From positions 1 through 43,867 of the forward strand of contig CANRBN010000001.1 of NCBI GenBank assembly GCA_947628865.1: 43,867 nt of DNA, written 5' to 3'. Below are positions 1,861 to 43,867 of the stretch, one piece after another. The DNA is from an uncultured Gemmiger sp. (GTDB lineage: Bacteria; Bacillota; Clostridia; Oscillospirales; Ruminococcaceae). Made by a program: the position numbers and the translations under genes. Position 1 is the stretch's first letter, and each line of letters begins with the position of its first letter. The notes beneath the pieces were generated by a model that did no database searches, had not been told where the DNA came from, and saw only the letters and a program-made list of their open reading frames with translations.

Positions 1861-1876
1861 GTCTTCCCCCATCCCG

Positions 1877-1902
1877 CGCCCCGCGCCGTTCAGCGCGGGG
1901 CG
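1877..1902. terminator. GC-rich hairpin between asnB and the transglutaminase-like gene
   Basis: cgccccgcgc-cgttca-gcgcggggcg is a perfect 10-bp stem, with no U-tract on the minus strand. Confidence 0.4.
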
Positions 1903-1929
1903 TGCTTTCTGTACAAGGCAAAAGCTGCC

Positions 1930-3768
1930 TCAAATCGTCAGACGGTAGCGCTCGCAAAGCATCGTCACGGTCATGGCGATGAGCAGATAGTCGATCTCAT
2001 AGGCGCCCATGAGCTTGAAATCCTGTTGGCAGTAGAGGGCCTTGAGCTCGTTGATATAGCCGGCGTCAAAGATGCCCTGTTTTTTGAGGAGCGACTCGGT
2101 CAGGAACATGTTTTCGCCCGGCTGCTTGATGAGCGACGACATGCCCGGCGCCTGGAACGGGAATTTTTTGCGCTTGAGGATCTCGTTCGGCACGATGCCC
2201 TCCCCCGCTTTTTTGAGGATATACTTTTCGTTGACGCCGTTGAGCTTGTACTTGTCCGGGATGGTCACGACGAAATTGAGCAGGTCGATGTCCAAAAACG
2301 GGTGGCGCCCCTCGACCGAGTGGGAAAAGATCATGCGGTCGCCGTGCTCGCCGAGAAGATGGTCGGAAAGGCGCAGCTTGTAGTCGATATAGGAGCGCCT
2401 TTTCTGGCTGCTCAGGCCCTTGACGCGCGCGACGTTGATGGGGCTTTCGGCAAAGGCGGAGAAATGCTCGATCTCGCCGCGCACATCGGCGCTGTACAGC
2501 TTTTTGTGGATCTCGCGGATGGCGGGGTGGTTGCGCTCGTAGCGGAAATACGGGTCGCCCCACAGGCGCTCGTTGACCGCGCATTCCTCGGCGCTCATCT
2601 TGCCCTTCTGCATGTTGCGGAAGAGATCGACCATATACCCGACGTAGCCGCAGAAGAACTCGTCCGAGCCCTGCCCGGTCAGCACGGCCTTGGCCGGCGA
2701 GCCCTGTACGAGCGCCGAGAGCAGATAGGCGGCCACATCGTAGCTTTCCTTGACGGCGGATTCGGCATGGTAGATGACGTTAGGCAGGTTTTCCCAGATG
2801 CGCTGCTCGTTGATATGGGTGACGTAGTGTTCGCTTTTCACATAGTCATGGATGATCTTTTGGAAGCGGCTCTCGTCGAGATCGCCCTCCTCCATCTCGG
2901 CGGAGAAAGAATAGTAGCTGTTGAGCAGGTATTTGCCGATGTAGCAGGCGACGACGGAGCTGTCGAGCCCGCCGGAGATATAAAAGCCGATGGGCACATC
3001 GGCGATGAGCCGGCGGGAAATGGCGCTCTTGAGCAGCTCGCGCAGGCGCTCGACATAATAGGCTTCGCCCTTGTCCTCCTCCTCGGGCTGGTATTGCAGA
3101 TCCCAGTATTCGATATCGCGGGGCTCCTGGCCGGGGCGGAGCAGCAGCATATGCCCGGCCCGCAGCGAATTGACGCCGGCAAAAAACGTGTTGGGCGAGA
3201 CGACGCCGGGATAGTTCATCAGCTGGTCGACGGCCTTGAGGTTCAATTTGCGCGGCACACCGGGAAATTCAAGGATGGCCTTGATCTCGGAGCCGAACAC
3301 GACCCAGCCGTCCACATGGGTATAAAACAGCGGCGCGATGCCGATGTGATCGCGCACCAGCAGCAGCTGGCGTTGGCGCGCATCGTACAGCGCGATGGCG
3401 AACTGGCCGTTGAGGCGGTTGGGAAAATCCAGGCCCTCCTCCTCATACAGGTGCAGGATGACCTCGACGTCGGTTTTGGTGGCAAAGCGATGGCCCTTTT
3501 TCTCCAGCTCCTCGCGCAGCTCCTGAAAGTTGAAGATCTCGCCGTTGCAGATCATCACGACGCTGCCGTCCTCGTTTTGCAGCGGCTGCATACCGCCGGC
3601 AAGATCGAGGAAGCTCAGGCGGTTGAAGCCCAGCCCCAGCCCCGGCTGCAAAAGCGTGTTGCTGCCGTCGGGGCCGCGGTGCTTGATGGCATCCAGCATG
3701 CCGCCCAGCAGCGCCGGATCCTGCCTGCGCTCGCCCAGAAGATCGTAAAAACCGCAGATACCGCACAT
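1930..3768 (-). CDS. asnB: Asparagine synthase (glutamine-hydrolysing) family amidotransferase
   Basis: N-terminal MCGI Ntn nucleophile, HRGPD, NGEIFN, SGGLDSS PP-loop, TGQGSDE, R.PFLD, EKYILK. Confidence 0.93.
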   Translation of the reverse strand: MCGICGFYDLLGERRQDPALLGGMLDAIKHRGPDGSNTLLQPGLGLGFNRLSFLDLAGGMQPLQNEDGSVVMICNGEIFNFQELREELEKKGHRFATKTDVEVILHLYEEEGLDFPNRLNGQFAIALYDARQRQLLLVRDHIGIAPLFYTHVDGWVVFGSEIKAILEFPGVPRKLNLKAVDQLMNYPGVVSPNTFFAGVNSLRAGHMLLLRPGQEPRDIEYWDLQYQPEEEDKGEAYYVERLRELLKSAISRRLIADVPIGFYISGGLDSSVVACYIGKYLLNSYYSFSAEMEEGDLDESRFQKIIHDYVKSEHYVTHINEQRIWENLPNVIYHAESAVKESYDVAAYLLSALVQGSPAKAVLTGQGSDEFFCGYVGYMVDLFRNMQKGKMSAEECAVNERLWGDPYFRYERNHPAIREIHKKLYSADVRGEIEHFSAFAESPINVARVKGLSSQKRRSYIDYKLRLSDHLLGEHGDRMIFSHSVEGRHPFLDIDLLNFVVTIPDKYKLNGVNEKYILKKAGEGIVPNEILKRKKFPFQAPGMSSLIKQPGENMFLTESLLKKQGIFDAGYINELKALYCQQDFKLMGAYEIDYLLIAMTVTMLCERYRLTI

Positions 3769-3786
3769 AAAACCGTTTCCCGCCTT

Positions 3787-4323
3787 TTACAGTACAGTGG
3801 AATGATATTCGATGGAAAGCACCGTATCGCCGCTCTGCACGACGAACCACAGCTCGCTGCCACCCTTTTCGTACACGATGGTGCCCGCTTCGGCGGCTTT
3901 TTCACCGTAGGCGGCGGCCACGTCTGCGACCGGCGCGCCGATGGCAAGGCCCTCCGCGGTCTCGACCATATCGTCCTTGAGGATCACAGCCGAGATGCGG
4001 TCGGTATCGCCGTCGGGATAGGTATCGACCTCAAAGCTCGCGTAGGTGTAGATCTTGTCAAGGCCGTCGAAGGCGCAGCTGGCGGCCTCCTGATAGTCAA
4101 CGGGGTCGCCCAGCGCCGCGATGATGGGGGCCGCGTCGGCATCCATGGGGATCTCGACGCCGTTGTAGGTAAAGACATAGGCGTCCTCCGCGGCGGTCTG
4201 GCCGGCGCCGCCGTTTGCCGACGGTGTGCCGCCATTGCCGGCGTCAGACCCGCCGCAGGCGGCGAGCAGGCAGGCCGCCAACACGGTGCAGAGGATCAGG
4301 GAGAGATGCTTTTTCATGTTCAT
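3787..4323 (-). CDS. Acidic lipoprotein of unknown function
   Basis: MKK + hydrophobic stretch + LAAC lipobox, followed by a Gly/Asn linker. Overlaps the upstream gene by 4 nt. Confidence 0.8.
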   Translation of the reverse strand: MNMKKHLSLILCTVLAACLLAACGGSDAGNGGTPSANGGAGQTAAEDAYVFTYNGVEIPMDADAAPIIAALGDPVDYQEAASCAFDGLDKIYTYASFEVDTYPDGDTDRISAVILKDDMVETAEGLAIGAPVADVAAAYGEKAAEAGTIVYEKGGSELWFVVQSGDTVLSIEYHSTVL

Positions 4324-5381
4324 GCGTCCTTTCTTTCCATGCCATAGAGTTTGTATTGTGCTTCGATCTCCGCGTCATACGCGGCGATCTTGCCTTTCCA
4401 GGCGGCATCCAGCGCGGCTTCGCCGCGGCGATCCGCAAGACCGAATTCGGTTTGCAGGTAGCGCCCCAGCCAGACAGCCAGCTTTTCGGCGCCGGAGAGG
4501 TTCATGTGCAGGCCGGCATCGTAGGTGTCGGTGTTGTAATCTATGCCGGTCTCGTCCTGGATCTCCAAAAAGTTGATATACCGGCGGTCGTGGGCTTCGG
4601 CATACGCCTCGACCTGCTCCTCCCATTCGGGGTACCAGTAGGGGTACAGGCTCGGCGCCTTGATGAGCAGCAGCTCCACGCCCTTTTCGCGGCAGAGCGC
4701 GTCCATCCTGTCAAGATATTCCCAGGCCTTGTCGCCAAAGCTGTAATCGCCCAAAATGCGCCCCTGTGTTTCCGATTCGACCGGGCGCACATCCACGCGC
4801 ATATAGTACCCGTTGTGGGTGACGGGCTTTGTCTTGAACAGGTATTCAAGGTCGGTCGGCGCGAGCTCGCTCCAGCGGCTGTGGTAGCGCAGGATGGGGA
4901 AAACATAGTCGAGGAAATGTTCGTTTTCTTTCATCGAGGCGAAGATCGCGCCGACCTTGGACGGCGACCATTTCATGCCCTCGATGGACATGCGGTTGTA
5001 GGCCTCGTTCTGTGACTCGTTGAATTGCAGAGACTGGATGTTGAACACCACAACATCCGGCGTTTCATAGCGCAGCGTGTCCTCCAAAAGATAGTAGGAC
5101 TGCCAGATATACTGCTCGGCGCTGCCGCGGATATAGCTGTTGATGCCATATTCCTGCCAGAGTTTTACCGGGGAAAAGTTTTCATAGACCTCGCAGTCGC
5201 CGATGAAGATGACGTCGTGATCCTTTTCCTCCCGATAGTATTCGGCGACGAAAGCGCCCTCCACGATGCCGTCGACGTATTTGGGCATGAGCAGGCGCTG
5301 CAAAAGGTACAGGCTGCCCGCCACGATGAGCGCCGAGACCGCGATGCGCACGAACCGGCGCCGTTGATCGGCTTTTTCCAT
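4320..5381 (-). CDS. DltD/AlgJ-like SGNH-fold extracytoplasmic acyltransferase
   Basis: N-terminal TM anchor, block I-like DVIFIGDCE and C-terminal D-AGL-H-MN. Directly follows the MBOAT gene. GAGGGGAGG RBS before ATG 5381. Confidence 0.7.
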   Translation of the reverse strand: MEKADQRRRFVRIAVSALIVAGSLYLLQRLLMPKYVDGIVEGAFVAEYYREEKDHDVIFIGDCEVYENFSPVKLWQEYGINSYIRGSAEQYIWQSYYLLEDTLRYETPDVVVFNIQSLQFNESQNEAYNRMSIEGMKWSPSKVGAIFASMKENEHFLDYVFPILRYHSRWSELAPTDLEYLFKTKPVTHNGYYMRVDVRPVESETQGRILGDYSFGDKAWEYLDRMDALCREKGVELLLIKAPSLYPYWYPEWEEQVEAYAEAHDRRYINFLEIQDETGIDYNTDTYDAGLHMNLSGAEKLAVWLGRYLQTEFGLADRRGEAALDAAWKGKIAAYDAEIEAQYKLYGMERKDA

Positions 5382-5409
5382 GGCGGTGCCCTCCCCTCTT
5401 GTAAACGAT

Positions 5410-6999
5410 TCAGAAGCGGTTGTAGATGAACTGGCTGGCGTCATAGCCGATGCCGTACGCGCCCATCAGCAATACCAGCAGGAACAGCCCGTACCAAACG
5501 ATGAACCGCACCGCGTAAGGGCGTTTTGCGATCTGCGCGCGCACGCTGCCGCGCCGCCCGAGGAGGCTGACGGTCAGCATCAGCGCGACGGCGCCCGCCA
5601 GCACGGCATAGTCGACGCCGGTCAGGCCCAGCTCAAGCAGCGCGCCGTTCCACAAAATGCCCCAGTTGCGGGCGGTCAAAACGGAGCCCAGCATGAACAG
5701 CGTGTCGCCGATGTTGGCAAAGCAGTCGAACAGATTGAGGCAGCAGATCAAAAGGAACGTGCGCCCCACCGCGAACAGCCGCCAGCCGAGGCCGCCAGCG
5801 CCGGGATGCTTTGCGTGAAAGCGCGCATACAGCGGCTCCAGCTCCTCGGATATCATCAGGATGGCCCAGTTGAGCAGCCCCCAGACGATAAAGTTCCAGC
5901 TGGCGCCGTGCCAGATGCCGGTCGCGAACCAGACCACAAAGCTGGACACATACACCGGCAGCCGGCGACCGACGGCCTCGCCGAACCTTGAGCGCGAAAA
6001 CCTGGCAAAGCGCTGCATCGCTTTGGAGGAGGAGACCGGATAAAAAACGTAATCCCTAAACCAGCTGCACATCGAGATGTGCCAGCGCCGCCAGTATTCT
6101 TTGAGCGATTTGGAAAAGTAGGGGCGGATGAAGTTCTCCTGCACCGTGACACCCAGCGCCTCGGAAAGGCCGATGGTGATGTCGATGCCGCCGGTAAAAT
6201 CGGCGTAGAGCTGCACGGTATAAAACACCATGCCGACCAGCGCATACGCGCCGTGGTAGGCGTTCACATCGCCAAGGATGACCGTGACGGCGCTGACGAT
6301 GCGATCCGCCACGACGAGCTTTTTAAAATAGCCCCACAGCATGCGCTGCAAACCGCGTGCCACGGTGCCGCCGTCGTACGGATGCCCGGCGTAGAGCGTC
6401 TCGCTCAGCTGGCCAAAGCGGCTGATGGGGCCCTGGATGACCAGCGGAAAGAAAGAGACGAACAGCAAAAAGCGCGGCAGGCTGCGCTCGGCGGGCTGGC
6501 TGCCGCGGTAGACGTCGATCAGATAGCCCACGGCCTGAAAGGTATAAAACGAGATGCCCAGCGGCAGCAGGATGTGCAAAAGCGGTAGCGGCCCTTTGGA
6601 AAACAGGCCCAGCACGGCGTTGACGTTGGCGATGGCAAAATCCGTGTATTTTACAACGGCCAGGATGCCAAGATCAAGCAGCAGGCAGCCGGTGAGCCAG
6701 CGCCTGCGGATGCGCTTTTGCTGTGCGCGGTAGGCTTTTTTGCCCTCACGGTCAAGGGTGTCCTTATGGGCCTGCAGATAGGCGCTCTGCTGTGCGGCGT
6801 TTGCCTGGATGCGCAGCGCCGCGTACCAGACGCTGACGGCGGTGGCCAGGATGTAAACGATCGCCCAGGCGCCGCCAAGCAGGTAAAACACAAGACTCGC
6901 CGCCAGCAGAAGCTTCCACTGGTGGCGTTTGGGCAGAAGATAATACAGCAGCAGCAAAACCGCGGCAAAGCCGAGGAACCCATAAGAGGTGAAGAGCAT
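5410..6999 (-). CDS. MBOAT family O-acyltransferase (DltB/AlgI-like) with fused C-terminal FIYxxF motif
   Basis: MLFTS start, LPLGISFYTFQ, GPISR, ENF.RPY, WRRWHISM, catalytic TGIWHGA, C-terminal FIYNRF. Confidence 0.92.
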   Translation of the reverse strand: MLFTSYGFLGFAAVLLLLYYLLPKRHQWKLLLAASLVFYLLGGAWAIVYILATAVSVWYAALRIQANAAQQSAYLQAHKDTLDREGKKAYRAQQKRIRRRWLTGCLLLDLGILAVVKYTDFAIANVNAVLGLFSKGPLPLLHILLPLGISFYTFQAVGYLIDVYRGSQPAERSLPRFLLFVSFFPLVIQGPISRFGQLSETLYAGHPYDGGTVARGLQRMLWGYFKKLVVADRIVSAVTVILGDVNAYHGAYALVGMVFYTVQLYADFTGGIDITIGLSEALGVTVQENFIRPYFSKSLKEYWRRWHISMCSWFRDYVFYPVSSSKAMQRFARFSRSRFGEAVGRRLPVYVSSFVVWFATGIWHGASWNFIVWGLLNWAILMISEELEPLYARFHAKHPGAGGLGWRLFAVGRTFLLICCLNLFDCFANIGDTLFMLGSVLTARNWGILWNGALLELGLTGVDYAVLAGAVALMLTVSLLGRRGSVRAQIAKRPYAVRFIVWYGLFLLVLLMGAYGIGYDASQFIYNRF

Positions 7000-7024
7000 G
7001 GCAAAACTCCCGGGAAAAAGGCGG

Positions 7025-7255
7025 TCAGGCCTCGTCCTGCAATTCCTGGATGAGCGCGTACAGCGCCTTGGCGGAGTTGAAGTTGGCCGGCACGATCTTG
7101 TCCGCCGTGATGGTGACATCAAACTCCTCGCCGATCTCGGCGATCAGCGTGACGATATCGAACGAATCCAGGATTATATCGTCGATCAGGTGCTCGCGGG
7201 TGGTAAAGTCGATGTCGGGGTGAAGCTCGTTCAAAATGTGCAGCAGTTCATCCAT
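7025..7255 (-). CDS. Acyl/aminoacyl carrier protein (DltC-like)
   Basis: 76 aa, acidic, ILDSFDIV phosphopantetheine Ser motif, NFNS near the C-terminus. Confidence 0.88.
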   Translation of the reverse strand: MDELLHILNELHPDIDFTTREHLIDDIILDSFDIVTLIAEIGEEFDVTITADKIVPANFNSAKALYALIQELQDEA

Positions 7256-7277
7256 GGGTGGTCATCCTTTCCTCTGG

Positions 7278-8792
7278 TTATTTGCCTTGCGCCATGTTTT
7301 TGAGCGTGACGCGGTCGATCTTTCCGTTGGCGGTCTGCGGCAGCTTTTCGAGCCGCACAAGGCGGTTGGGCAGCATATAGCGCGGCAGCTTGCCCTTGAG
7401 CGCGGTGGTCAGCGAGGGCTCATCCGCATCGCCGACATAATAGAGTACGATCTTCTGGCGCGCATTATCATAAACGCAGGCGGACATTTGGATGCTGTCC
7501 AGCATGTCGACGTTGGCTTCGATCTCGCCCAGCTCGATGCGATGGCCCATGTGCTTGATCTGGTGGTCACGCCGGGAGACAAAGACAAGATCACCCTCGG
7601 CGTTGCGCCTGCCGATATCGCCGGTCTTGTAGATGATCTCCGGGTATGCGGTGTTGAGCGGGTTCTGCACGAACGCCTGCGCGGTGCGCTCGGGGTCGTT
7701 ATAGTACCCGAGCGTGACGGCGGTGCCGCGGATGCAGATCTCGCCCTCCTCGCCGTCGCCGGCAAGCGTGCCGTCGGCTCTGAGCAGCAGGATCTCGCGG
7801 TTTGCAAAGGGACGCCCGATGGGGATGACCTCATCGTCGGCAAAATCGCGGTCGGCACGGTACCAGCAGCACATGCCGGTGCCCTCGGTGGGGCCGTACA
7901 GATTGGTGAAGGTCGCGCTCGGCACGGCCTCGCGCCAGAGGCGGAACTGACGGATGGGAAAGACCTCGCTGCCAAAGGCCACCGTGCGCAGATACTGCGG
8001 CTTGACGGTCTTAAAGGTGCCAAGCGCGCTCACCATCGTGAGCGCCGAGACGACCCAGCAGATGGTATTGATCCTGTGTTCGTTGAGGTATTCGACCAGC
8101 GCGATGGGGAACGAGAACAGGCGCTGCGGGATGAGCCAGGTCGTCGCGCCGAACTTGATGGTGGAATACACGTCCTTGAGGCAGGCGTCAAAGTAAAGCG
8201 GCGCCTGGTTGCCAAAGACGGTATCTTCGTCAAAGGCGAGCACCTCGGACAGCTGCTCGATGTAATCGAGCACCGAGCGGTGGCAGGCCGCCACCCCCTT
8301 GGGGATGCCGGTGGAGCCGGAGGTGAAAACGATGTAGATGGGGTCGGTGTCGATGGCGGCGCGGCGGATGGCATCGAGCGCGGCACGGTCGGGCTCGGTG
8401 TGGATGAGCTCCTCGTACAGCGCGAGCTCGCCGCCCATCAGATCGAACTGGCGGGCCTTTTCGATGGTATCGGCGTCGCAGATCACGAGCGGAGATTTGA
8501 CGTTCTCCAAAATCAGGCGGATGCGGCTGTCCGGCATCTCCTCGTCGAGCGGCACATAAAAATCGCCGCCGGCAATCACGCCGAAGAACGCGGTGATCTC
8601 CATCGGTGACTTGCGCATGAACACAACGACGGGCCGCTTGCAGATGCCGCGCATGTGCAGGCAGGTGGCGATGCTTTCGGTGCGCTGCAAAACCTCGGCG
8701 AACGTCAGGGTGACGGTATCGCTGCAATAGGCCGGCTTGTCCGGCAGGCGCGCCGCCGTCGCATACAGATCATTCAAGACATTCTTGTTCAT
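7278..8792 (-). CDS. Stand-alone amino acid adenylation enzyme (DltA-like)
   Basis: A3 YIVFTSGSTGIPKG, A4 FDAC, A5 NLYGPTE, GEICIRG, YKTGD, GHRIELGEIE, A10 NGKIDR. Confidence 0.92.
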   Translation of the reverse strand: MNKNVLNDLYATAARLPDKPAYCSDTVTLTFAEVLQRTESIATCLHMRGICKRPVVVFMRKSPMEITAFFGVIAGGDFYVPLDEEMPDSRIRLILENVKSPLVICDADTIEKARQFDLMGGELALYEELIHTEPDRAALDAIRRAAIDTDPIYIVFTSGSTGIPKGVAACHRSVLDYIEQLSEVLAFDEDTVFGNQAPLYFDACLKDVYSTIKFGATTWLIPQRLFSFPIALVEYLNEHRINTICWVVSALTMVSALGTFKTVKPQYLRTVAFGSEVFPIRQFRLWREAVPSATFTNLYGPTEGTGMCCWYRADRDFADDEVIPIGRPFANREILLLRADGTLAGDGEEGEICIRGTAVTLGYYNDPERTAQAFVQNPLNTAYPEIIYKTGDIGRRNAEGDLVFVSRRDHQIKHMGHRIELGEIEANVDMLDSIQMSACVYDNARQKIVLYYVGDADEPSLTTALKGKLPRYMLPNRLVRLEKLPQTANGKIDRVTLKNMAQGK

Positions 8793-8913
8793 CGTATCTC
8801 CCCAAACCGCCGGGCAGGCCGTGCCGGCAAACATTCAAATACAGTTTGCACCGCACGGCGCGCAGCTATGCGCGGCTTCGGTTCTGCTTTTTTACACAAA
8901 AACCGACAGTAGC

Positions 8914-34910: not shown

Positions 34911-34964
34911 TTGCATTGGCAAAAAGCGGGTGCTATAATGGGTATAACAACCTATGGTTGTTAT
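34911..34964 (+). promoter_or_regulatory. dinB promoter with adjacent palindromic operator
   Basis: TTGCAT-17-TATAAT (TGn extended), followed by a perfect inverted repeat ataacaacc-tat-ggttgttat (34944-34964). Confidence 0.75.
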
Positions 34965-35001
34965 CCGATCCAAGCCCTCCTCTCCTGTTCCGGTGGCCGT
35001 T

Positions 35002-36261
35002 ATGGAGACCTGCATCGCCCATGTGGACGCGAACTGCTTTTATGCCAGTGTGGAAATGGCCGAGCACCCCGAGCTGCTCGGCAAGGCCATCGCTGTCTGC
35101 GGTGACCCGGCCAACCGCCACGGCATCATCCTGACCGCCAGCTACCCCGCCAAGCGCAAGGGCGTCAAGACGGCCATGGCCATCTGGGAGGCAAAGGCTC
35201 TTTGCCCGGAGCTCATCCTTGTGCGGGCCGACCTGCGCCTGTATATGCGCTACAGCCGCTATACGCGCGATATCTTTTACCGCTACACCGACCGCGTGGA
35301 GCCGTTCGGCCTGGACGAGGCGTGGCTCGGCCTGCGCGGCTGCCCCGCCTGCGGCGGCGAGCCCTTGCGCATCGTGCAGGCCATCAGCGACGCTTTCAAG
35401 CGGGAGCTTGGCATCACATGCAGCATCGGGCTCTCTTTCTCCAAGGTCTATGCCAAGCTCGGCTCCGATTACAAAAAACCCGATGCCATCACCGTGTTTG
35501 ACCGCGCCAACTACCGTGAGCGGGTCTTTCCCCTGCCGGTCTCGGATCTTTTGTATGTGGGCCGCGCCACCACCCGGAAGCTCAACGAGATGGGCATCTA
35601 CACCATCGGCGACCTGGCCACCTGTGACCCCGCGCGCCTGCAGCGCAAGCTCGGCAAGATGGGGCTGGTCGTCCACCGGTTTGCCAACGGCTATGACGAT
35701 GAGCACATCTGCCAGGTCGGCGACCGCGCGCCCGTCAAGAGCGTGGGAAACTCCTGGACGACGCCGCGTGACCTGACCGAGGACACCGACGCCTGGGTGG
35801 TGTTCATGCTGCTCTGTGAGAGCGTCGGCGCGCGGCTGCGGGAGCTCGGCTGCAAATGCCGCGGTATCGAGATCTCGGTGCGGGACGCTTCACTTTCCTG
35901 GTTTTCACGCCAGACCGTGCTGCCGATGCCCACGAACATCACCGAGGAGCTCACCGCCGCGGCGTGTGCGCTGTTCCGGTGCCACTACCATTGGAGCAAG
36001 GGCCTGCGCAGCCTGGGCGTGCGCGGCTTCGACCTTGTCTGGAGCGATGAGCCCGTCCAGCTGCGGCTGGACATCGACGCCAACCGGCAGGAGGAGCTCA
36101 TGCGTTTGGACGGTGCCATCGACGATCTGCGCCGGCGGTACGGGTTTTCCATCGTACAGCGGGCCAAGGTGTGGACGCGCCCGGAGCTGGCAAGGCTGGA
36201 CGCCAGGCATGACAACGTCGTGCATCCGCACGGCTATTTTGGGCAGATGGAGGGGCTTTGA
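35002..36261 (+). CDS. dinB: Y-family DNA polymerase (DNA polymerase IV/UmuC-like)
   Basis: H.D.NCFYASVE, ASY.AK..GVKT.M, FGLDEAW, AKLGSD.KKPD, KSVGNS.T, clamp-like QLRL. Confidence 0.92.
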   Translation: METCIAHVDANCFYASVEMAEHPELLGKAIAVCGDPANRHGIILTASYPAKRKGVKTAMAIWEAKALCPELILVRADLRLYMRYSRYTRDIFYRYTDRVEPFGLDEAWLGLRGCPACGGEPLRIVQAISDAFKRELGITCSIGLSFSKVYAKLGSDYKKPDAITVFDRANYRERVFPLPVSDLLYVGRATTRKLNEMGIYTIGDLATCDPARLQRKLGKMGLVVHRFANGYDDEHICQVGDRAPVKSVGNSWTTPRDLTEDTDAWVVFMLLCESVGARLRELGCKCRGIEISVRDASLSWFSRQTVLPMPTNITEELTAAACALFRCHYHWSKGLRSLGVRGFDLVWSDEPVQLRLDIDANRQEELMRLDGAIDDLRRRYGFSIVQRAKVWTRPELARLDARHDNVVHPHGYFGQMEGL

Positions 36262-36554
36262 GCATGAAACGGCGCAAGCTGTATGTAGCGGTGGAAAGCT
36301 ATACCGACGCCGCCGGCGTCGAGACGCCGCGCATCATCCACTGGCCGAACGGCGAGCAGTACCCGGTCACGGCGGTGCTGCGCACCGTCAACCGGCAGCA
36401 CGCAAAGGTCGGCGGCACCGGCACCTGCTACACCTGCGCCTTTGCGCAGGGCGGCATCGGCAATGTTTACCATGAGGTGCTCGAGGATGATGCCAGCAGC
36501 GTCATCGGGGCAAGATGGTTCGTGGAGGAAAAGATCGAGGCGGAACACGCCTGA
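36258..36554 (+). CDS. Small hypothetical protein coupled to dinB
   Basis: Overlaps or abuts the dinB stop (start 36258 or 36264). Beta-rich pattern V.V....D..G...P....W..G..Y....V...K.GG.G..YTC...WFVE. Confidence 0.75.
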   Translation: MSMKRRKLYVAVESYTDAAGVETPRIIHWPNGEQYPVTAVLRTVNRQHAKVGGTGTCYTCAFAQGGIGNVYHEVLEDDASSVIGARWFVEEKIEAEHA

Positions 36555-36572
36555 AGACGGGAGGCGGCAGCG

Positions 36573-37160
36573 ATGTGCGGAAGATACCAGTTCAGCGTGC
36601 AGGCCTGCCCGGCGCTTGCGGGCATCGCGCGCCGCGCAGGGCAGAGCCCGCAGGGCGGGCCGCCGACCGGCGATATCTGCCCGACGCAGACCGCCCCGGT
36701 GCTGACGGCGCGCGGCGGACAGATCGCGGTCGAGATGCAAAAATGGGGCATGCGGCGGTACGGCAAGACCATCATCAACGCCCGCGCCGAGACGGTGGCC
36801 ACAAAGCCGATGTTCCGGCGCGATATCCTCGCGCGGCGCTGTGCCGTGCCGGCCTCGGCCTACTATGAATGGGACGCCGGCAGGCACAAGTACCGCTTTA
36901 CAAGGCCCGGGCAGGCGCTGTATCTGGCCGGTATCTATGACGTACAGGACGACGGGCGGCACTTTGTCGTGCTGACCACGGCGCCCAATCCAAGCGTACA
37001 CGGCATACACGACCGCATGCCGCTGATCCTGCGGCGCGAGGATGTGCGCCCCTGGCTGACCGACAGCGCCGCCGCGCTCAAGCTGCTGGCGGATGCCCCG
37101 CCGCTGCTCGAAAGAACTGCCGAGGATGGGCAGCTGAGCTTTGGAGATCTCATGGACTGA
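36573..37160 (+). CDS. SOS response-associated peptidase (SRAP/YedK/HMCES family)
   Basis: N-terminal MCGRY, INARAET, RC.VPA..YYEW, IHDRMPLIL. Confidence 0.93.
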   Translation: MCGRYQFSVQACPALAGIARRAGQSPQGGPPTGDICPTQTAPVLTARGGQIAVEMQKWGMRRYGKTIINARAETVATKPMFRRDILARRCAVPASAYYEWDAGRHKYRFTRPGQALYLAGIYDVQDDGRHFVVLTTAPNPSVHGIHDRMPLILRREDVRPWLTDSAAALKLLADAPPLLERTAEDGQLSFGDLMD

Positions 37161-37222: not shown

Positions 37223-37257
37223 AAAAAAAAGCAGGCTGCCAATGAGCAGCCCGCTTT
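37223..37257 (-). terminator. Terminator between the convergent SRAP and cpsD genes
   Basis: A8-gcaggctgc-caatga-gcagcccgcttt stem with a U-tract on the minus strand. Confidence 0.65.
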
Positions 37258-37330: not shown

Positions 37331-38026
37331 TCAATACTGCTCGCCGTATTTTTTGCCGTAATACTTGCCGTAATACTTGCCGTAATACTTGCCCGAATGG
37401 CGGCGGTCGACCTTGTTGAGGATGACGCCGAGCACCGGGCAATTTGCATTTTTGAGCTTTTGCACCACGTCCTGCGCAGCGCGGTAGCTGACCTCGTTCG
37501 CCTCAATGACGACGGCGGCGCCATCACAGTACTGCACGACCATCGCCGCGTCGACGACCATGCCCAGCGGCGCGGTGTCGATGATGACATAATCAAAGCT
37601 GTCGCGCGCGGCGGCAATGACCTTTTCCATGCGCTCGCCGCCCAGCAGCTCGGAGGGGTTCGGCGGCACCGTGCCGGCAAAGATCACCGTCAGGCCGTCC
37701 GGCGTCGTGCGGTAGATGATGTCCTCCGCGTTGCACTGGCCGGAGAGATAGTGCGAAAGCCCATATGTGATCTGGCCGGAAACGACTTTCCGCCGCAAAA
37801 CGGATTTGCGCAGGTCGGCATCGATGAGCAGCACCTTTTTGCGCTGCTCGCGCAGCGAGCGGCACAGGTTGAGCGCGACGGTGCTTTTGCCCTCGCCGGC
37901 CATGCAGCTGGTCAGGCAGATGACTTTCTTTTCCGTGCCGCAGAACTGCAGGTTGGCGCGCAGCAGCTTGAGCTCCTCATTGATCTCGTAAGGCAGCTCC
38001 CGCATTTCCAATTCGACGTGTTCCAA
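37331..38026 (-). CDS. cpsD: CpsD/CapB family bacterial tyrosine kinase
   Basis: LR.NLQF, GEGKST Walker A, IDADLRK, PPNPSELL, IIDTAP, C-terminal Tyr cluster. TTG start with AAGGAG RBS. Confidence 0.92.
   Translation of the reverse strand: MEHVELEMRELPYEINEELKLLRANLQFCGTEKKVICLTSCMAGEGKSTVALNLCRSLREQRKKVLLIDADLRKSVLRRKVVSGQITYGLSHYLSGQCNAEDIIYRTTPDGLTVIFAGTVPPNPSELLGGERMEKVIAAARDSFDYVIIDTAPLGMVVDAAMVVQYCDGAAVVIEANEVSYRAAQDVVQKLKNANCPVLGVILNKVDRRHSGKYYGKYYGKYYGKKYGEQY
37353..37393. repeat. 12-bp tandem repeat (x3.4) encoding GKYY
   Basis: (ttgccgtaatac)3 ttgcc. Confidence 0.9.
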
Positions 38027-38040
38027 AAATTCCCGCTCCT

Positions 38041-38760
38041 TTATCCCAACGCTAATATTGAAAACGGGTTGTCCCACAACACCCTTTGGGCGTAGGCATC
38101 CCCCAATTTATTTTCGATCTTATGGGCACACAGGCCCAGCTCCACAGGCCGATACTCCGGCCCATGCGCATCGGAAGCCACCACATGGATCAAATCATGC
38201 TTTGCAAGCTCCCAGCAAAACAACTGTTGGCGCAGACCCTCGCGGCCCAGCAGGCTGCCGGCGTTGACCTGGATCATGGCGCCCAGCTCCCGCAGGCGGC
38301 GCACCGCGTCGATGCCCGTGCGCACGGCGGGATAGCGCTCGACATGCGCGACCAGCGGCTGATACCCTGCCGCGATGACCTTTTGCAGGCGGTGGCAGAT
38401 GATATCCAGCGTGTGACGGCCTGAAAACTCGACCAAAAGGGTCTTTCCCCTGCCCAGCGGCAGTAGCTCGCCCTGCTCGAGCAAACTCATAAAATGGGAA
38501 TCACAGTAATATTCCCGGCTCAGGCACAGGTAGATGGGCAGCTTTTGCGTGCGGATGTAATCCCGTGCCCGCTCAAATTGATGCTTGACTTCTTCGTTGC
38601 CGGACTCGAACATCCCGTGGCGCAGGTGCGGCGTCGCACATACGACGCTGATGCCCTGCCGCGTCTGCTCATTGAGCAGCTGTTCCATCTCTTCCAGATG
38701 TTCGGCACCATCGTCCACGTAGGGCAGGATATGGCAGTGGATATCCGCCAGCCTTGTCAT
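38041..38760 (-). CDS. cpsB: CpsB/CapC PHP-family tyrosine phosphatase
   Basis: DIHCHILP.VDDGA, ATPH, AHVERY, VASDAH...RP. Confidence 0.92.
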   Translation of the reverse strand: MTRLADIHCHILPYVDDGAEHLEEMEQLLNEQTRQGISVVCATPHLRHGMFESGNEEVKHQFERARDYIRTQKLPIYLCLSREYYCDSHFMSLLEQGELLPLGRGKTLLVEFSGRHTLDIICHRLQKVIAAGYQPLVAHVERYPAVRTGIDAVRRLRELGAMIQVNAGSLLGREGLRQQLFCWELAKHDLIHVVASDAHGPEYRPVELGLCAHKIENKLGDAYAQRVLWDNPFSILALG

Positions 38761-38790
38761 GCCCTGCTCCTCCCGTTTCTCCCTTCGCCA

Positions 38791-38822
38791 AAGGGGCCCC
38801 GCTTTTGGGGCGGGGTCCCCTT
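38791..38822. terminator. GC-rich hairpin after the surface-protein gene
   Basis: aaggggccccgc-ttttggg-gcggggtcccctt, with no clear U-tract. Confidence 0.5.
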
Positions 38823-38838
38823 GACTTAGGGGAATGTG

Positions 38839-39420
38839 TTACATTTCCTTTTTGCGCGCCTTGACAGCCACGATGCTGGCCAACGCGATCACGGAGATGC
38901 CGACGAACGGCACAGCCATGGGGGCGCCAGTCTGGGGCGCGGTCGGGGTGGTGCTGGGCGGGTTGGTGGCCGGCGTATCGTCGGTCTTGCCCTTCACGAC
39001 GATGAAGGCGAACGGCGAGAAAGCATCAGCGCTAAAAGTGACTTTAGAGCCAGTGCCCTGGCCGATGAATTCCCAAGCACTGCCAGTCCAGTGCAGCACG
39101 ATGACAGTGTCATTGGCCGCAACACCGGAAACCGTGAAAGTGTAGGAACCATCGGGATTGCCGATCGGCTCAATGTCCTGAACGATGACGTTGACGACCT
39201 CCTGCTTGGCGGTGTCGATCTTGCCAAGAGTAGTCAAGACCTCCGTCGCTTTCGCAACAGACTGAACCGTCTCGGTGACAGCCGTATCCGCCACTTCCTT
39301 AATCGTGACGTTATCGGGCCCCTCGAGCTGATCCGTCGAGCTGGGGCCCGCGGCAAAAGCGGGGACAGCCAGGCAAGTGGTGAGCATCAGAGCCAGCACC
39401 ATTGAGAGAACCTTTTTCAT
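38839..39420 (-). CDS. Small sortase-anchored cell wall protein (APQTG sorting signal)
   Basis: Sec signal MKKVL...AFA, Thr/Pro-rich linker, APQTG + hydrophobic helix + KARKK tail. AGAAAGGAGG RBS. Confidence 0.85.
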   Translation of the reverse strand: MKKVLSMVLALMLTTCLAVPAFAAGPSSTDQLEGPDNVTIKEVADTAVTETVQSVAKATEVLTTLGKIDTAKQEVVNVIVQDIEPIGNPDGSYTFTVSGVAANDTVIVLHWTGSAWEFIGQGTGSKVTFSADAFSPFAFIVVKGKTDDTPATNPPSTTPTAPQTGAPMAVPFVGISVIALASIVAVKARKKEM

Positions 39421-39484
39421 TGGAGTGTACCTCCTTTCTTCCAAAATTTATTCAAACGCGCTTTCGCGCGAGTGAATACACCAT

Positions 39485-40519
39485 TCAAGGGGCGGCGGTC
39501 TCGGGCTCGTAAAAGAGCTCGATGATCATCTGCTGGAGCGCTTCCTCGTCCACATGATACTCGTCATGTACAGCACCGGCCACGGTGGCCCCGGGCACCT
39601 TGAGGGTCTCCTCCTGCAGGTCATATTCCGCCAACATCTGGAGCGTTTCGGCGTCGAGATTGGTCTCGATGGAATCCCCGGCCACAGTCAGCATATGCTG
39701 CAGCGTTTCGGCCATGCCGCCCTTGGCTTTCAGTTGGGAAAACAGCTCGTGCATGAACCATGTCTCGCGCGCAAGGCGCTGCTCTGCCGAGCCGGTAACG
39801 GTGATATCTCTTGAGCGGACGAACTTTTCCGTCGCGGGGCCGTCCAGTGTGACCTGCGCGCCGGAAACATACGCCGGGTCGATGTAGGAATAATCCTCCG
39901 GGAATGTGAGCGTGATGCCGCCGAGCTCCTCGACGATGAGCGGGATGCCGTCCATCTTGAGCGCGAGGCTGCCGGTGATGGGCACGTTGTACAAAAGGCG
40001 CGATACCGTGCGTTCCATCAAAAAGCAGCTGCGGCGGTCACTGTCACCATAAATGTATTGGAGCGTGATGTGCATCGGACCCGTATAGGCGTAGTCCCCG
40101 TTGCCGCGGTAAACATCCACGTCCGTGATGGTGTCACGGGAGATGGCAAGCGTCTGCATGGTTTTGGTGCCCGTGTCGAGCAGGAACAGCATGATGGCAT
40201 CCGCGCGTCCGTTGTTGCCCGCGATCTCGCCCACGCTCTCGGTGAGATTGGCGTTGTCCACGCCGAGGAAGAGCACGGTCTTCAGATCGCGCCGGCGGCG
40301 GTAGTTTACGCCGTTGAACGTGATGGTGCTCTGCCAGTCGGCGTTATCATCCGCCGGCGGCAGGCTGACAGCGGGTTCCGAATCCGCCGGCGCAGCCGCA
40401 CCTGACGCGGGAGCAGACCCGCAGCCGGCGCAAAGACCCGCCAGCAGCAGCGCCGCAGCCAAAAGCGGAAGCACCTTCATCGCGGGCGTTCTCATCCGAC
40501 CACAGCCTGCTGATCCCAT
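39485..40519 (-). CDS. LCP (LytR-CpsA-Psr) family glycopolymer transferase, possibly a lipoprotein
   Basis: VLFLGVD, GRADAIML, ISRDT, VEELGGI, FVRSR, R..R. Hydrophobic stretch ending LCAGC. Confidence 0.88.
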   Translation of the reverse strand: MGSAGCGRMRTPAMKVLPLLAAALLLAGLCAGCGSAPASGAAAPADSEPAVSLPPADDNADWQSTITFNGVNYRRRRDLKTVLFLGVDNANLTESVGEIAGNNGRADAIMLFLLDTGTKTMQTLAISRDTITDVDVYRGNGDYAYTGPMHITLQYIYGDSDRRSCFLMERTVSRLLYNVPITGSLALKMDGIPLIVEELGGITLTFPEDYSYIDPAYVSGAQVTLDGPATEKFVRSRDITVTGSAEQRLARETWFMHELFSQLKAKGGMAETLQHMLTVAGDSIETNLDAETLQMLAEYDLQEETLKVPGATVAGAVHDEYHVDEEALQQMIIELFYEPETAAP

Positions 40520-41310
40520 GCGCTTTCCTCCTGCAGGACCCCTATGATGAGATAGCGGTGGATCACGCTGTCCGAATTTCCGGTACAGGTGGAGAGGATG
40601 AGGATCTTGTCGTCCTTCGTGACCGGCACATCCTCAACGATGTGGTTGTTGAGGTCGCGCACGGTCGAGGGCAGTGAATCCAGGAACGCCTGCCGGTTTT
40701 CCGGCGCGGAGTCATCATAATAATAAGGTATATAGGCGTTACTGTAGGTGATCGCGGCAAAGATACGGTAACGCAGCTCCTCTTCCGGCGTGTAGACGAA
40801 GATGTCGGGGTTCGCCTCCAGCACCGCGGTATCGCGGTACTGGGTCAGATTGCTGAAGAGGGTGCCATCCTCATAGTTGTGACCGTAGAGGATGGTGTGA
40901 TAGTCGGAAAAATCACCGGCATTGACAGAGGGCTCGCTGTAGATGGCGCCGTGGCGGTTGTACGCGCCCGTGATATCGTGCCGAAGATAAAAGGCGTCAT
41001 TGTCCGGGTGCTGCACCACGGGATAGGAGATATCCAGCCCCGGTATCTCGATCCAGCCGTAGATATCGGCGCATTCCTGCCAGGCCTGTTCAAAATCGAC
41101 GGGGCAGAGATGCGGCTCGGGCGTGGGGGTCGGCTCCGCGGTCGGGGCCTGTGTGGGCGCCGGCGTGGCGGTGGGCTCGGCAGTCGCCTGCAGCTCCTTA
41201 TAGACATCCGCCTCGTGCGCGGTGGTATAGAAGTAATGGATGAGAAAGCAGGCTGTAACTGCGATCACGACAAGACTGCCATAATAGACGATCTTTCTTG
41301 CGCCTTTCAA
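40492..41310 (-). CDS. srtB: Class B sortase
   Basis: N-terminal TM, GWIEIPG..I.YPVVQ..DN..FYL.H, ILYGHN..DG..F..L, LSTC, RY. Confidence 0.9.
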   Translation of the reverse strand: MKGARKIVYYGSLVVIAVTACFLIHYFYTTAHEADVYKELQATAEPTATPAPTQAPTAEPTPTPEPHLCPVDFEQAWQECADIYGWIEIPGLDISYPVVQHPDNDAFYLRHDITGAYNRHGAIYSEPSVNAGDFSDYHTILYGHNYEDGTLFSNLTQYRDTAVLEANPDIFVYTPEEELRYRIFAAITYSNAYIPYYYDDSAPENRQAFLDSLPSTVRDLNNHIVEDVPVTKDDKILILSTCTGNSDSVIHRYLIIGVLQEESAWDQQAVVG

Positions 41311-41364
41311 AGAGTCCTTTTCCCTCCTTGCATGACGGTCGAACGCGCGGTGCCGGCGAACTGC

Positions 41365-42105
41365 TTATTTCTTCTTTTTGCCGCCGGAGCTTGACTTGGC
41401 CGCCTTGACGTGCTCCATCGGGAGCGCCGCCAGCGTGGTGACGCCGAGATACCGCTGGACGTCGTCCTCATCCTTGATGGTATCGTCCATAAAGTGCTGT
41501 ACCAGGATAATGCCGGCGGTCAAGGCAAAGAACAGCAGCGCGCAGACCGCGCAGTTGAGCAGCAGGCTCGGGCTGCTGGGGGCTTCGGGAACGACCGCCC
41601 GCTGTACCGTGGAGGGCGTATCGGTGCTCATGACCTCGGCGATCTGCAGCTTCATCTGGTCGGCCAACGCATTGCTGAGCTGGGCGGCCAGGTCAGGGTC
41701 AGGATTTGTGACCGTGATCTGCAGCATGTGGGAATCGCTGGGGTTCGTGACCTCGATGGTCTTGACGAAGTCCTCATACGGGTCGGTGATGCCGTACTGC
41801 CCCATGACGACCTCGACGACCTCGCGCGTGGTGGCGATGATCTGGAAGTCAGCGGCCAGCTGGCTGCCGATCTGCAGATCCGCCAGCGAGGTGATGCTGG
41901 TCGTCTTGGAAAGTATGTAGATGATGGAGGTCGCCTCATACTGCGGCGTGATGAAGAGCAGTGTGACGATGGCCGCCGCTGCAATGCCGGCCACCGTGGT
42001 CGCCGCCAGCAGCCAGACCTTGTTCCACAATACATGGAACACTTCCAGCAGGTCGATCTCCTGCTCGTCCAGCTGTTGCTGCTGCTGCAATTCAAGGTTT
42101 TCCAT
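41365..42105 (-). CDS. cpsC: CpsC/CapA (Wzz/Wzd) polysaccharide co-polymerase / kinase activator
   Basis: EIDLL, two TM helices, P.YEAT..IYI, A..P..PSSPS...N, DDTIK..DDV..YLG...LA.LP. Confidence 0.9.
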   Translation of the reverse strand: MENLELQQQQQLDEQEIDLLEVFHVLWNKVWLLAATTVAGIAAAAIVTLLFITPQYEATSIIYILSKTTSITSLADLQIGSQLAADFQIIATTREVVEVVMGQYGITDPYEDFVKTIEVTNPSDSHMLQITVTNPDPDLAAQLSNALADQMKLQIAEVMSTDTPSTVQRAVVPEAPSSPSLLLNCAVCALLFFALTAGIILVQHFMDDTIKDEDDVQRYLGVTTLAALPMEHVKAAKSSSGGKKKK

Positions 42106-42252
42106 AGTTTCCCCCAACTTCGATATTCCCACTGCCTGCACAAAGGCACGGCGGCCAAATCACGGCGCAGCGCGGGTTTGTGCACAGAATTCGCATTATT
42201 TGCGCAAAGCTTAGCTCATTCAAGGACACTAAACGCTCGATATATCCTGTAC

Positions 42253-42281
42253 ATCATAACACATTTGCCCCACCCATGCAA
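42253..42281 (-). promoter_or_regulatory. Putative sigma-A promoter of the cpsC-srtB operon
   Basis: TTGCAT-17 nt-TATGAT with TGn extension. Confidence 0.6.

Positions 42282-43800: not shown

Positions 43801-43867
<67 letters not shown>

Follow-up and report, generated by a model that had tools for sequence, protein, structure and literature searches.

Two described systems lie close to the locus considered here. In Actinomyces oris, according to PMC6381275, the LytR–CpsA–Psr (LCP) enzyme LcpA transfers a phosphate-linked glycan to the sortase substrate GspA, with two arginines of the enzyme essential and the first (R128) dispensable. In Mediterraneibacter gnavus ATCC 29149, PMC13121745 (Obana et al. 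2026) reports that srtB4, the LCP gene RGna_12040 and the phosphatase gene RGna_12055 are each required for capsule display (the srtB4 deletion was complemented), that the LCP and srtB4 mutants lose visible capsule, and that this capsule decides competitive gut colonization and dampens inflammation in mice. The block RGna_12030–12060 has its own promoter ahead of cpsC and is conserved while the upstream glycosyltransferase genes vary. The authors assign the LCP to peptidoglycan attachment, call the role and mechanism of the sortase unclear, and note the SPQTG protein RGna_12050; they observed no increase of capsule in the supernatant of the srtB4 mutant. We analyzed a window of 43,867 nucleotides from an uncultured Gemmiger sp. 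(contig CANRBN010000001.1, GenBank assembly GCA_947628865.1), a term that denotes the whole stretch, and followed up a minus-strand operon at 37331–42281. Its gene combination is already known as capsule-display genetics, and the operon is a member of a mechanistically unexplained system. We consider it probable that the operon serves a protein-tethered capsule: a polysaccharide carried on a lipid pyrophosphate would be moved by the LCP to an N-terminal serine of a small carrier protein that SrtB would anchor.

The first-pass annotation of this DNA had read the operon as cpsC, srtB, LCP, APQTG protein, cpsB and cpsD, running from a promoter to a terminator, with srtB overlapping the LCP gene and without any glycosyltransferase, flippase or polymerase. 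This layout was borne out: six intact genes lie in that order on the minus strand, srtB and the LCP gene share 4 nucleotides (ATGA), and none of the three biosynthetic functions is encoded between promoter and terminator. The genes, and the parts of the carrier that matter below, are as follows.

41365–42105, minus strand: cpsC, Wzz-type co-polymerase and kinase activator, 246 residues (PF02706, 2.8e-13; TIGR01006 below its cut-off)
40492–41310, minus strand: srtB, class B-like sortase, 272 residues (PF04203; His144, Cys242, Arg252)
39485–40495, minus strand: LCP phosphotransferase of the carrier-linked subfamily, 336 residues (PF03816, 52.3 bits against a cut-off of 24.6)
38839–39420, minus strand: P0001, small sortase substrate and candidate polysaccharide carrier, 193 residues, outside every Pfam family
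39337–39342, minus strand: Ser27-Ser28, candidate glycan acceptor, mature positions +4/+5; an N-terminal serine is conserved in the family
38986–39351, minus strand: MAIN-related beta-sandwich, A-F-S in place of H-x-S, likely inactive (profile comparisons and a structural model)
38926–38940, minus strand: APQTG sorting motif, residues 161–165, read from the sequence
38041–38760, minus strand: cpsB, PHP-family phosphotyrosine phosphatase, 239 residues (PF19567, 1.3e-68)
37331–38026, minus strand: cpsD, bacterial tyrosine kinase (BY-kinase; TIGR01007, 192.8 bits against 108.05), in an open frame that extends to 38077

CpsC, CpsB and CpsD together have the features of a CpsBCD regulator: a Wzz-type CpsC, a PHP phosphatase, and a BY-kinase with Walker A, A′ and B motifs and a tyrosine cluster (8 tyrosines among the last 22 residues). 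The likely start of cpsD is the TTG at 38026, which stands behind an AAGGAG overlapping the cpsB stop codon.

We compared the operon with metagenome loci that match the RGna_12040 and RGna_12050 primers of the M. gnavus study. Ten metagenome loci match the paper's primer, and five of the six examined share the gene order of the window plus one VanZ-like gene; the sixth (L033:11600–19400) is interrupted after the VanZ-like gene by ParA/ParB- and replication-like open reading frames, with carrier, cpsB and cpsD absent from the 10 kb examined. Identities between the window and M. gnavus-type proteins were 38% (CpsC), 39% (SrtB), 45% (LCP), 33–36% (xPQTG protein), 36% (CpsB) and 50% (CpsD). Judged by gene order, this 33–50% identity and the trees described below, the window operon is orthologous to the M. 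gnavus srtB4 cluster. Both have the same order, LCPs and sortases of the same small clades, and a promoter of their own ahead of cpsC; the window operon differs in lacking the VanZ-like gene (the RGna_12045 position), in being detached from biosynthetic genes, in having APQTG rather than SPQTG, and in its lipobox-like LCP. What is new here is the LCP subfamily with altered residues, its linkage to a carrier gene, the N-terminal serine, and the likely inactive relative of a MAIN domain. No proposal that an M. gnavus-type capsule is linked to a small protein was found in a literature search outside which most subscription papers lay. A SrtB of the R. gnavus capsule locus reportedly acts in surface protein display, which may bear on novelty.

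The evidence that carries the proposal begins with the gene neighborhoods of the LCP. Among 40 relatives, two of the 24 genomes from the genus had a close LCP match, as did 8 loci in genomes of 6 other families, and a small secreted protein adjoined the LCP or the sortase in all nine of the first loci examined. An LCP profile matched in 35 of 399 genomes of the class, with 23 places scoring more than 265 bits, 16 scoring less than 160 and a clean gap between. A carrier gene lay within two genes of the LCP at 18 of 21 new high-scoring loci, compared to 0 of 16 low-scoring LCPs; the remaining three comprised one carrier recognized by eye and two orphan LCPs. In an order-wide draw, the subfamily LCP was present in 62 of 401 genomes (about 15%), and 48 of its 53 new loci had a carrier no more than two genes from the LCP, a descriptive count, as all the linkage figures are, since the loci are kin. 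The other five consisted of two with a carrier three to four genes away, one orphan, one contig end and one broken LCP. Both the class-wide and the order-wide loci were excluded from the profile that scored them. At the same 53 loci, cpsC/D were present in 36, biosynthetic genes (within about 4.5 kb) in 21 and srtB in 19; linkage to the carrier is the tightest of these.

This survey shows that the gene combination is widely conserved in Clostridia, so the model is not refuted by non-conservation. It also changes one emphasis of the first-pass annotation: because the module occurs within or next to genes for capsule biosynthesis at about 40% of loci (13 of 32 and 21 of 53), the absence of glycosyltransferases is a local arrangement rather than a defining trait. 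In a quick tree of 60 LCPs, the 32 subfamily members fell on one side of a branch (SH-aLRT 98), with the LCP of the window in a six-row clade with the M. gnavus-type enzyme (support 100). The N-terminus of this LCP is lipoprotein-like (C-A-G-C; 40421–40495, minus strand) instead of the usual membrane helix, and the LCP start in the orthologous locus of genome G023 (L021:3161–3220) is likewise lipobox-like (L-G-G-C). At three loci from two genomes of one genus (L044, L045, L050), the LCP gene is inverted and convergent with the carrier gene.

The LCP of the window has a PF03816 domain with the catalytic Arg/Asp residues: D99, R120, R229 and R240 are kept, and the catalytic Arg/Asp set is present in 32 of 32 subfamily members and 52–53 of 53 new loci. 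Differences appear at positions that, for Staphylococcus aureus LcpA, the review PMC7831098 gives as proposed peptidoglycan-binding sites, near R99, K135, N137 and D224; equivalents were assigned by mapping the S. aureus numbering by motif onto solved canonical LCPs. Lys or Arg at the K135 equivalent occurred in 0 of 32 subfamily members compared to 16 of 28 controls (16 of 16 class controls; the alignment has a gap here for the genus's 12 housekeeping LCPs), Asn at the N137 equivalent in 0 of 32 compared to 14 of 28, and Asp or Glu at the D224 equivalent in 2 of 32 compared to 28 of 28. At the 53 new loci, the counts were K in 0 and D in 2, with replacements Q in 49, A/C in 51 and N in 45. 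In the window, these acceptor-side residues are H140, T142 and A237, so the canonical K-x-N and D-x-G-R are both absent. Arg at the R99 equivalent was found in 4 of 32 subfamily members, among them the LCP of the window, compared to 15 of 28 controls. This LCP thus looks active but retuned on the acceptor side, as far as residue patterns can indicate. A complex prediction for LCP plus carrier scored 0.08 against a mark of 0.32, and we used it neither for nor against the model.

The second line of evidence concerns the carrier. The APQTG protein comprises a signal peptide (residues 1–23), a beta-sandwich (24–145), a T/S/P linker (146–160), the APQTG motif, a hydrophobic membrane tail and a terminal KARKK; the mature protein (residues 24–164, 14.6 kDa) has a flexible N-terminus and a 122-residue beta-sandwich modeled at pLDDT 88. 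Pfam and PDB sequence searches assigned it to no family. The first-pass annotation had called it a small Thr/Ser/Pro-rich protein onto which the LCP would ligate a polysaccharide made elsewhere. Small it is, but the T/S/P richness is confined to the 15-residue linker and the rest is mostly folded beta-sandwich; the ligation itself is the best-supported model, with the two amendments that the conserved candidate acceptor is an N-terminal serine (Ser27 or Ser28 in the window) rather than the T/S/P-rich stretch, and that the cluster had already been described. Of 34 carriers tried, 31 received a signal-peptide call, and all 31 have a serine at mature positions 1–8, compared to 19 of 53 controls; Ser-[P/V/I/T] was present at mature positions 2–10 in 43 of 47 new carriers (three of 50 had no signal-peptide call) compared to 11 of 85 crude controls, which were noisy, many being membrane proteins or lipoproteins. 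Thr-[P/V/I/T] was not enriched (7 of 47 carriers, 21 of 85 controls). F-x-x-S-[P/V] was present in 18 of 18 further homologues. Two carriers (L136 and L141) with predicted mature lengths of only 26 and 28 residues and no folded domain keep the Ser-Pro, as does a 136-residue carrier (L135), also without a folded domain. We rejected the T/S/P linker as a conserved acceptor since it varies while the N-terminal serine is nearly invariant: four or more Ser/Thr were found in the linkers of 14 of 30 family members, and several linkers are 2–4 residues long or Ala-rich.

The sandwich itself appears related to MAIN (microbial GAIN) autoproteolytic domains, for which Brogan and Rudner (bioRxiv 10.64898/2026.05.12.724683) have YfkN and the IgA-binding BAC protein as reference proteins; their preprint mentions neither LCPs nor capsule. 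A carrier profile run over 400 genomes matched in 32, a search that is circular for the strong matches. The weaker matches were mostly large sortase substrates sharing the C-terminal domain, with an LCP nearby in 0 of 15 loci, so the domain also exists apart from the module. HHalign of the carriers against 10 clostridial domains gave 97% and E 8e-11, although these domains had themselves been found with the carrier profile and are not independent; three of the 10 match YfkN 1251–1347 and BAC 920–1032 with E 8.6e-7 to 1.9e-5. Direct matches of carriers to the YfkN and BAC reference MAIN regions numbered 0 of 8, and fold searches with two carrier models returned no clear match, to a GAIN-B-like fold or any other (best Z 5.1; CD97 and ZU5 chains Z 3.8–4.1). 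As in MAIN proteins, the carrier domain is C-terminal and the beta-sandwich stands directly before the sortase signal, adjoining the wall anchor, with a profile match to HFS-bearing clostridial domains. MAIN proteins differ in normally bearing a large N-terminal protein cargo, of which the carrier has none; it is smaller, and its His is mostly lost. The carrier of the window has lost the H-x-(S/T) motif (A-F-S); the His is lost in 25 of 30 carriers, with H-x-S in 1 of 30 and H-x-C in 4 of 30, compared to H-x-S in 7 of 10 relatives without an LCP. The sandwich is therefore likely an inactive relative of the MAIN domain, on these profile and motif comparisons, and active autoproteolysis was rejected for the window's carrier because the His of H-x-S is replaced. 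A carrier without N-terminal protein cargo would fit a glycan cargo.

SrtB combines a sortase domain with a His-Cys-Arg triad, as expected of class B, and its best-scoring sortase model is TIGR03064 (113.9 bits against a cut-off of 153.75). In a quick tree, 36 of 38 module sortases fell on one side of a branch (support 99) and 8 of 9 other SrtBs lay apart, among them the three other SrtBs of this genome, which fall outside the module-sortase side; the SrtB of the window groups in a six-row clade with SrtB4-type sortases (support 95). The assembly (1.8 Mb, 87% complete) holds one cpsBCD set, three other SrtB-like genes and one other LCP, and the APQTG protein was the only small substrate of its kind found in a genome scan. 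Genes for a polysaccharide made elsewhere, as the first-pass annotation had supposed, do exist: priming transferases, glycosyltransferases, nucleotide-sugar enzymes and a Wzx-type flippase are spread over at least six other contigs, and the operon would draw on them. Locus L097 (G000:C65) has genes for NeuB, a nucleotidyltransferase and a DegT aminotransferase, which suggest a nonulosonic-acid pathway and a possible capsule sugar. The orthologous locus in G023 has the same detached arrangement, promoter and hairpins, with protein identities of 38–74%.

Compared to the A. oris LcpA–GspA–SrtA system, as given in the accessible part of PMC6381275, the module is alike in that the LCP gene adjoins the sortase-substrate gene and the essential arginines are equivalent to those invariant here, and the R128 equivalent, assigned by motif, is the Arg mostly replaced in the subfamily. 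It differs in using a co-transcribed, module-specific SrtB where A. oris has its housekeeping class A SrtA, and a cpsBCD link is not reported in that part of the paper. With canonical cpsABCD systems (Streptococcus pneumoniae CpsA, Bacillus subtilis TagTUV, S. aureus LcpA) the module shares CpsB/C/D and the LCP fold with its catalytic Arg/Asp, and in many relatives the LCP likewise precedes the priming transferase; canonical LCPs have K-x-N and D-x-G-R where the subfamily has Q-x-A/C and N-x-x-R, and the module adds an obligate-looking carrier gene and often a sortase. Exosortase/PEP-CTERM systems place a sorting enzyme among polysaccharide genes, with an unrelated enzyme and motif and in a Gram-negative envelope. 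The likeness to them drawn in the first-pass annotation survives as a concept only, as the enzyme here is a PF04203 sortase and the motif APQTG.

In the mechanism that we favor, repeat units would be built on undecaprenyl pyrophosphate and flipped by the products of genes on other contigs, and CpsC, CpsD and CpsB would set polymer length, as is known for their families. The 193-residue carrier would be secreted, cut by signal peptidase and held by its C-terminal tail; the LCP would then form a sugar-1-phosphate-serine phosphodiester at Ser27 or Ser28, and SrtB, to judge from its adjacency and family, would cut APQT-G and join the glycoprotein to the wall. The beta-sandwich, dispensable in relatives, would be a spacer and is likely a dead MAIN domain.

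Several observations weigh against this tethered-capsule model. Glycosylation is inferred for every module member. According to the peer-review file of PMC13121745, versions of RGna_12050 with a FLAG or fluorescent tag did not show up in the wall, and the srtB4 mutant was like the wild type in this respect; as a conjecture, an N-terminal tag or a polymer-sized smear might have hidden the carrier. That study also describes extraction of the capsule from cells by water at 95 °C, which alone does not indicate a covalent wall link, and an RGna_12050::erm disruptant that was built and whose growth is shown, with no capsule phenotype for that strain in the main text. On the side of the LCP, the kinship of the loci and the mapping of residues by motif temper the counts above, the enzyme of the window retains the Arg equivalent to R99, and the 12 housekeeping LCPs of the genus likewise depart from the canonical K-x-N, so the substitutions alone do not prove that the acceptor has changed. 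Orphan subfamily LCPs occur in one genus (L054, L059, L131), and a module-type SrtB with a carrier occurs with no LCP within 11 kb (L077:3918–5739). On the side of the carrier, related loci and noisy serine controls make the p-values look better than they are; only five of those controls had a sorting signal, and two of the five matched the motif; several carriers have no clear xPxTG (L024, L025, L047, L048, L057); at three loci of one genus (L049, L051, L052) srtB is present and the carrier has no sorting signal at all; and one 418-residue Thr/Ala-rich carrier (L022:10335–11591) stops four residues after SPKTG.

Some of these loci have further peculiarities. The orphan LCPs of L054 and L059 adjoin Trk-type potassium-uptake genes, with no carrier down to 50 residues. 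The carrier-like protein of L077 has 285 residues and a Cys-rich N-terminus, and its SrtB belongs to the module clade. At L049, L051 and L052, the carrier N-terminus is coiled or of low complexity, the sortase is long-branched, and an extra gene of 154–159 residues precedes the LCP. The L022 locus has no membrane tail in any frame and lacks cpsB, and its carrier is possibly secreted or decayed.

Four other explanations can be set against the same observations. The LCP might glycosylate the carrier with a short or non-capsular lipid-linked glycan, giving a GspA-like glycoprotein with an indirect or locus-dependent effect on capsule. Carrier, srtB and LCP do stand without cps genes at 7 of 32 loci, cpsC/D are missing at 17 of 53, and the polysaccharide genes of this genome are scattered over at least six contigs. 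The presence of cpsC/D at 36 of 53 loci, the frequent location of the LCP at the cpsA position directly before a priming transferase, and the M. gnavus LCP and srtB4 mutants without visible capsule make this reading, in our view, unlikely. We also regard as rather unlikely an ordinary ligation of capsule to peptidoglycan by the LCP, with the sortase-anchored protein an accessory scaffold, guide or non-covalent binder. LCPs canonically do just this, and PMC13121745 reads its enzyme in the same way; localization of tagged RGna_12050 was negative, and the beta-sandwich matches carbohydrate-binding modules as well as anything else (Z up to 5.1). However, carriers of 26–28 residues are too short to fold into a scaffold or lectin and still keep the serine motif; throughout the subfamily, other residues stand at the proposed wall-binding positions; and the genome has a separate housekeeping LCP.

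A third possibility keeps the glycoprotein and moves the glycan to many Thr/Ser of the T/S/P-rich stretch, in a mucin-like manner, rather than to a single N-terminal serine. The linker of the window has 7 Ser/Thr in 18 residues and close relatives reach 14 in 21, but four or more occur in only 14 of 30 members while the N-terminal serine is nearly invariant, and we consider this very unlikely. Least credible of all, and close to negligible, is that the operon was left behind when a capsule island lost its biosynthetic genes, and that it does not function here. The scarcity of close LCPs in the genus (2 of 24 other genomes), the G+C content of 58–62% compared to 65% for the genome, and flanks made up of a umuC/SRAP cassette and a tRNA end would fit a relic. 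All six frames and the catalytic residues are intact, however; G023 has kept the detached layout, the promoter and the hairpins, with proteins 38–74% identical; and this is the only cpsBCD set found in the 87%-complete assembly, with priming transferases, glycosyltransferases and a flippase elsewhere.

The transcription signals of the operon, all on the minus strand, are listed next.

42253–42281, minus strand: predicted sigma70-type promoter, TTGCAT-17-TATGAT with an extended −10 TG, read from the sequence
39449–39478, minus strand: hairpin upstream of the carrier gene, z −2.9; G023 hairpins at the same place, z −3.6
38787–38825, minus strand: strong hairpin in the gap from carrier to cpsB, z −5.2 (−4.4 for its counterpart in G023)
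37228–37257, minus strand: intrinsic terminator, found by scan, folding at z −4.0 and facing the convergent SRAP gene

The promoter is kept upstream of cpsC in the orthologous locus of G023; a consensus promoter scan whose yield did not exceed chance (4 sites, 2.2 expected) did not list it. The hairpin between carrier and cpsB is possibly an mRNA stabilizer or a partial terminator. The operon is flanked by a nitroreductase gene on one side and the umuC/SRAP cassette on the other, the latter (34954–37160, plus strand) comprising a umuC/DinB-like polymerase gene, a 98-residue open reading frame and the SRAP gene, which converge on the operon terminator; the contig ends inside a tRNA (43803–43867, minus strand). 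G+C content is 52–62% over 37–43.9 kb, and the operon may lie in an island. At the far end of the window, a cluster at 79–8834 (minus strand) encodes a transglutaminase-like Ig-domain protein, an asparagine synthase, two Pfam-less proteins, an MBOAT protein and an AMP-binding enzyme, and by its gene content resembles a Dlt-like envelope acylation or amidation system.

We give about even credence to a broader proposal, that gut Clostridia have a third mode of holding a capsule, in which a dedicated LCP subfamily would join the entire Wzy-type polysaccharide by a phosphodiester bond to a single N-terminal serine on a sortase-anchored peg. Such a peg could have as few as 26 residues or consist of a bare MAIN domain, and those few that retain His-x-Ser/Cys could shed the capsule by autoproteolysis and force. 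The question of why the M. gnavus capsule needs a sortase is narrowed here to one residue, the N-terminal serine, for which both a specific enzyme and a natural substrate of 26 residues can be named. If the model is true, Gram-positive gut bacteria can have capsules that are glycoproteins, a second and independent-looking lineage of protein-acceptor LCPs would exist besides A. oris LcpA, and the LCP with its short serine tag would offer a candidate means of attaching polysaccharides to proteins.

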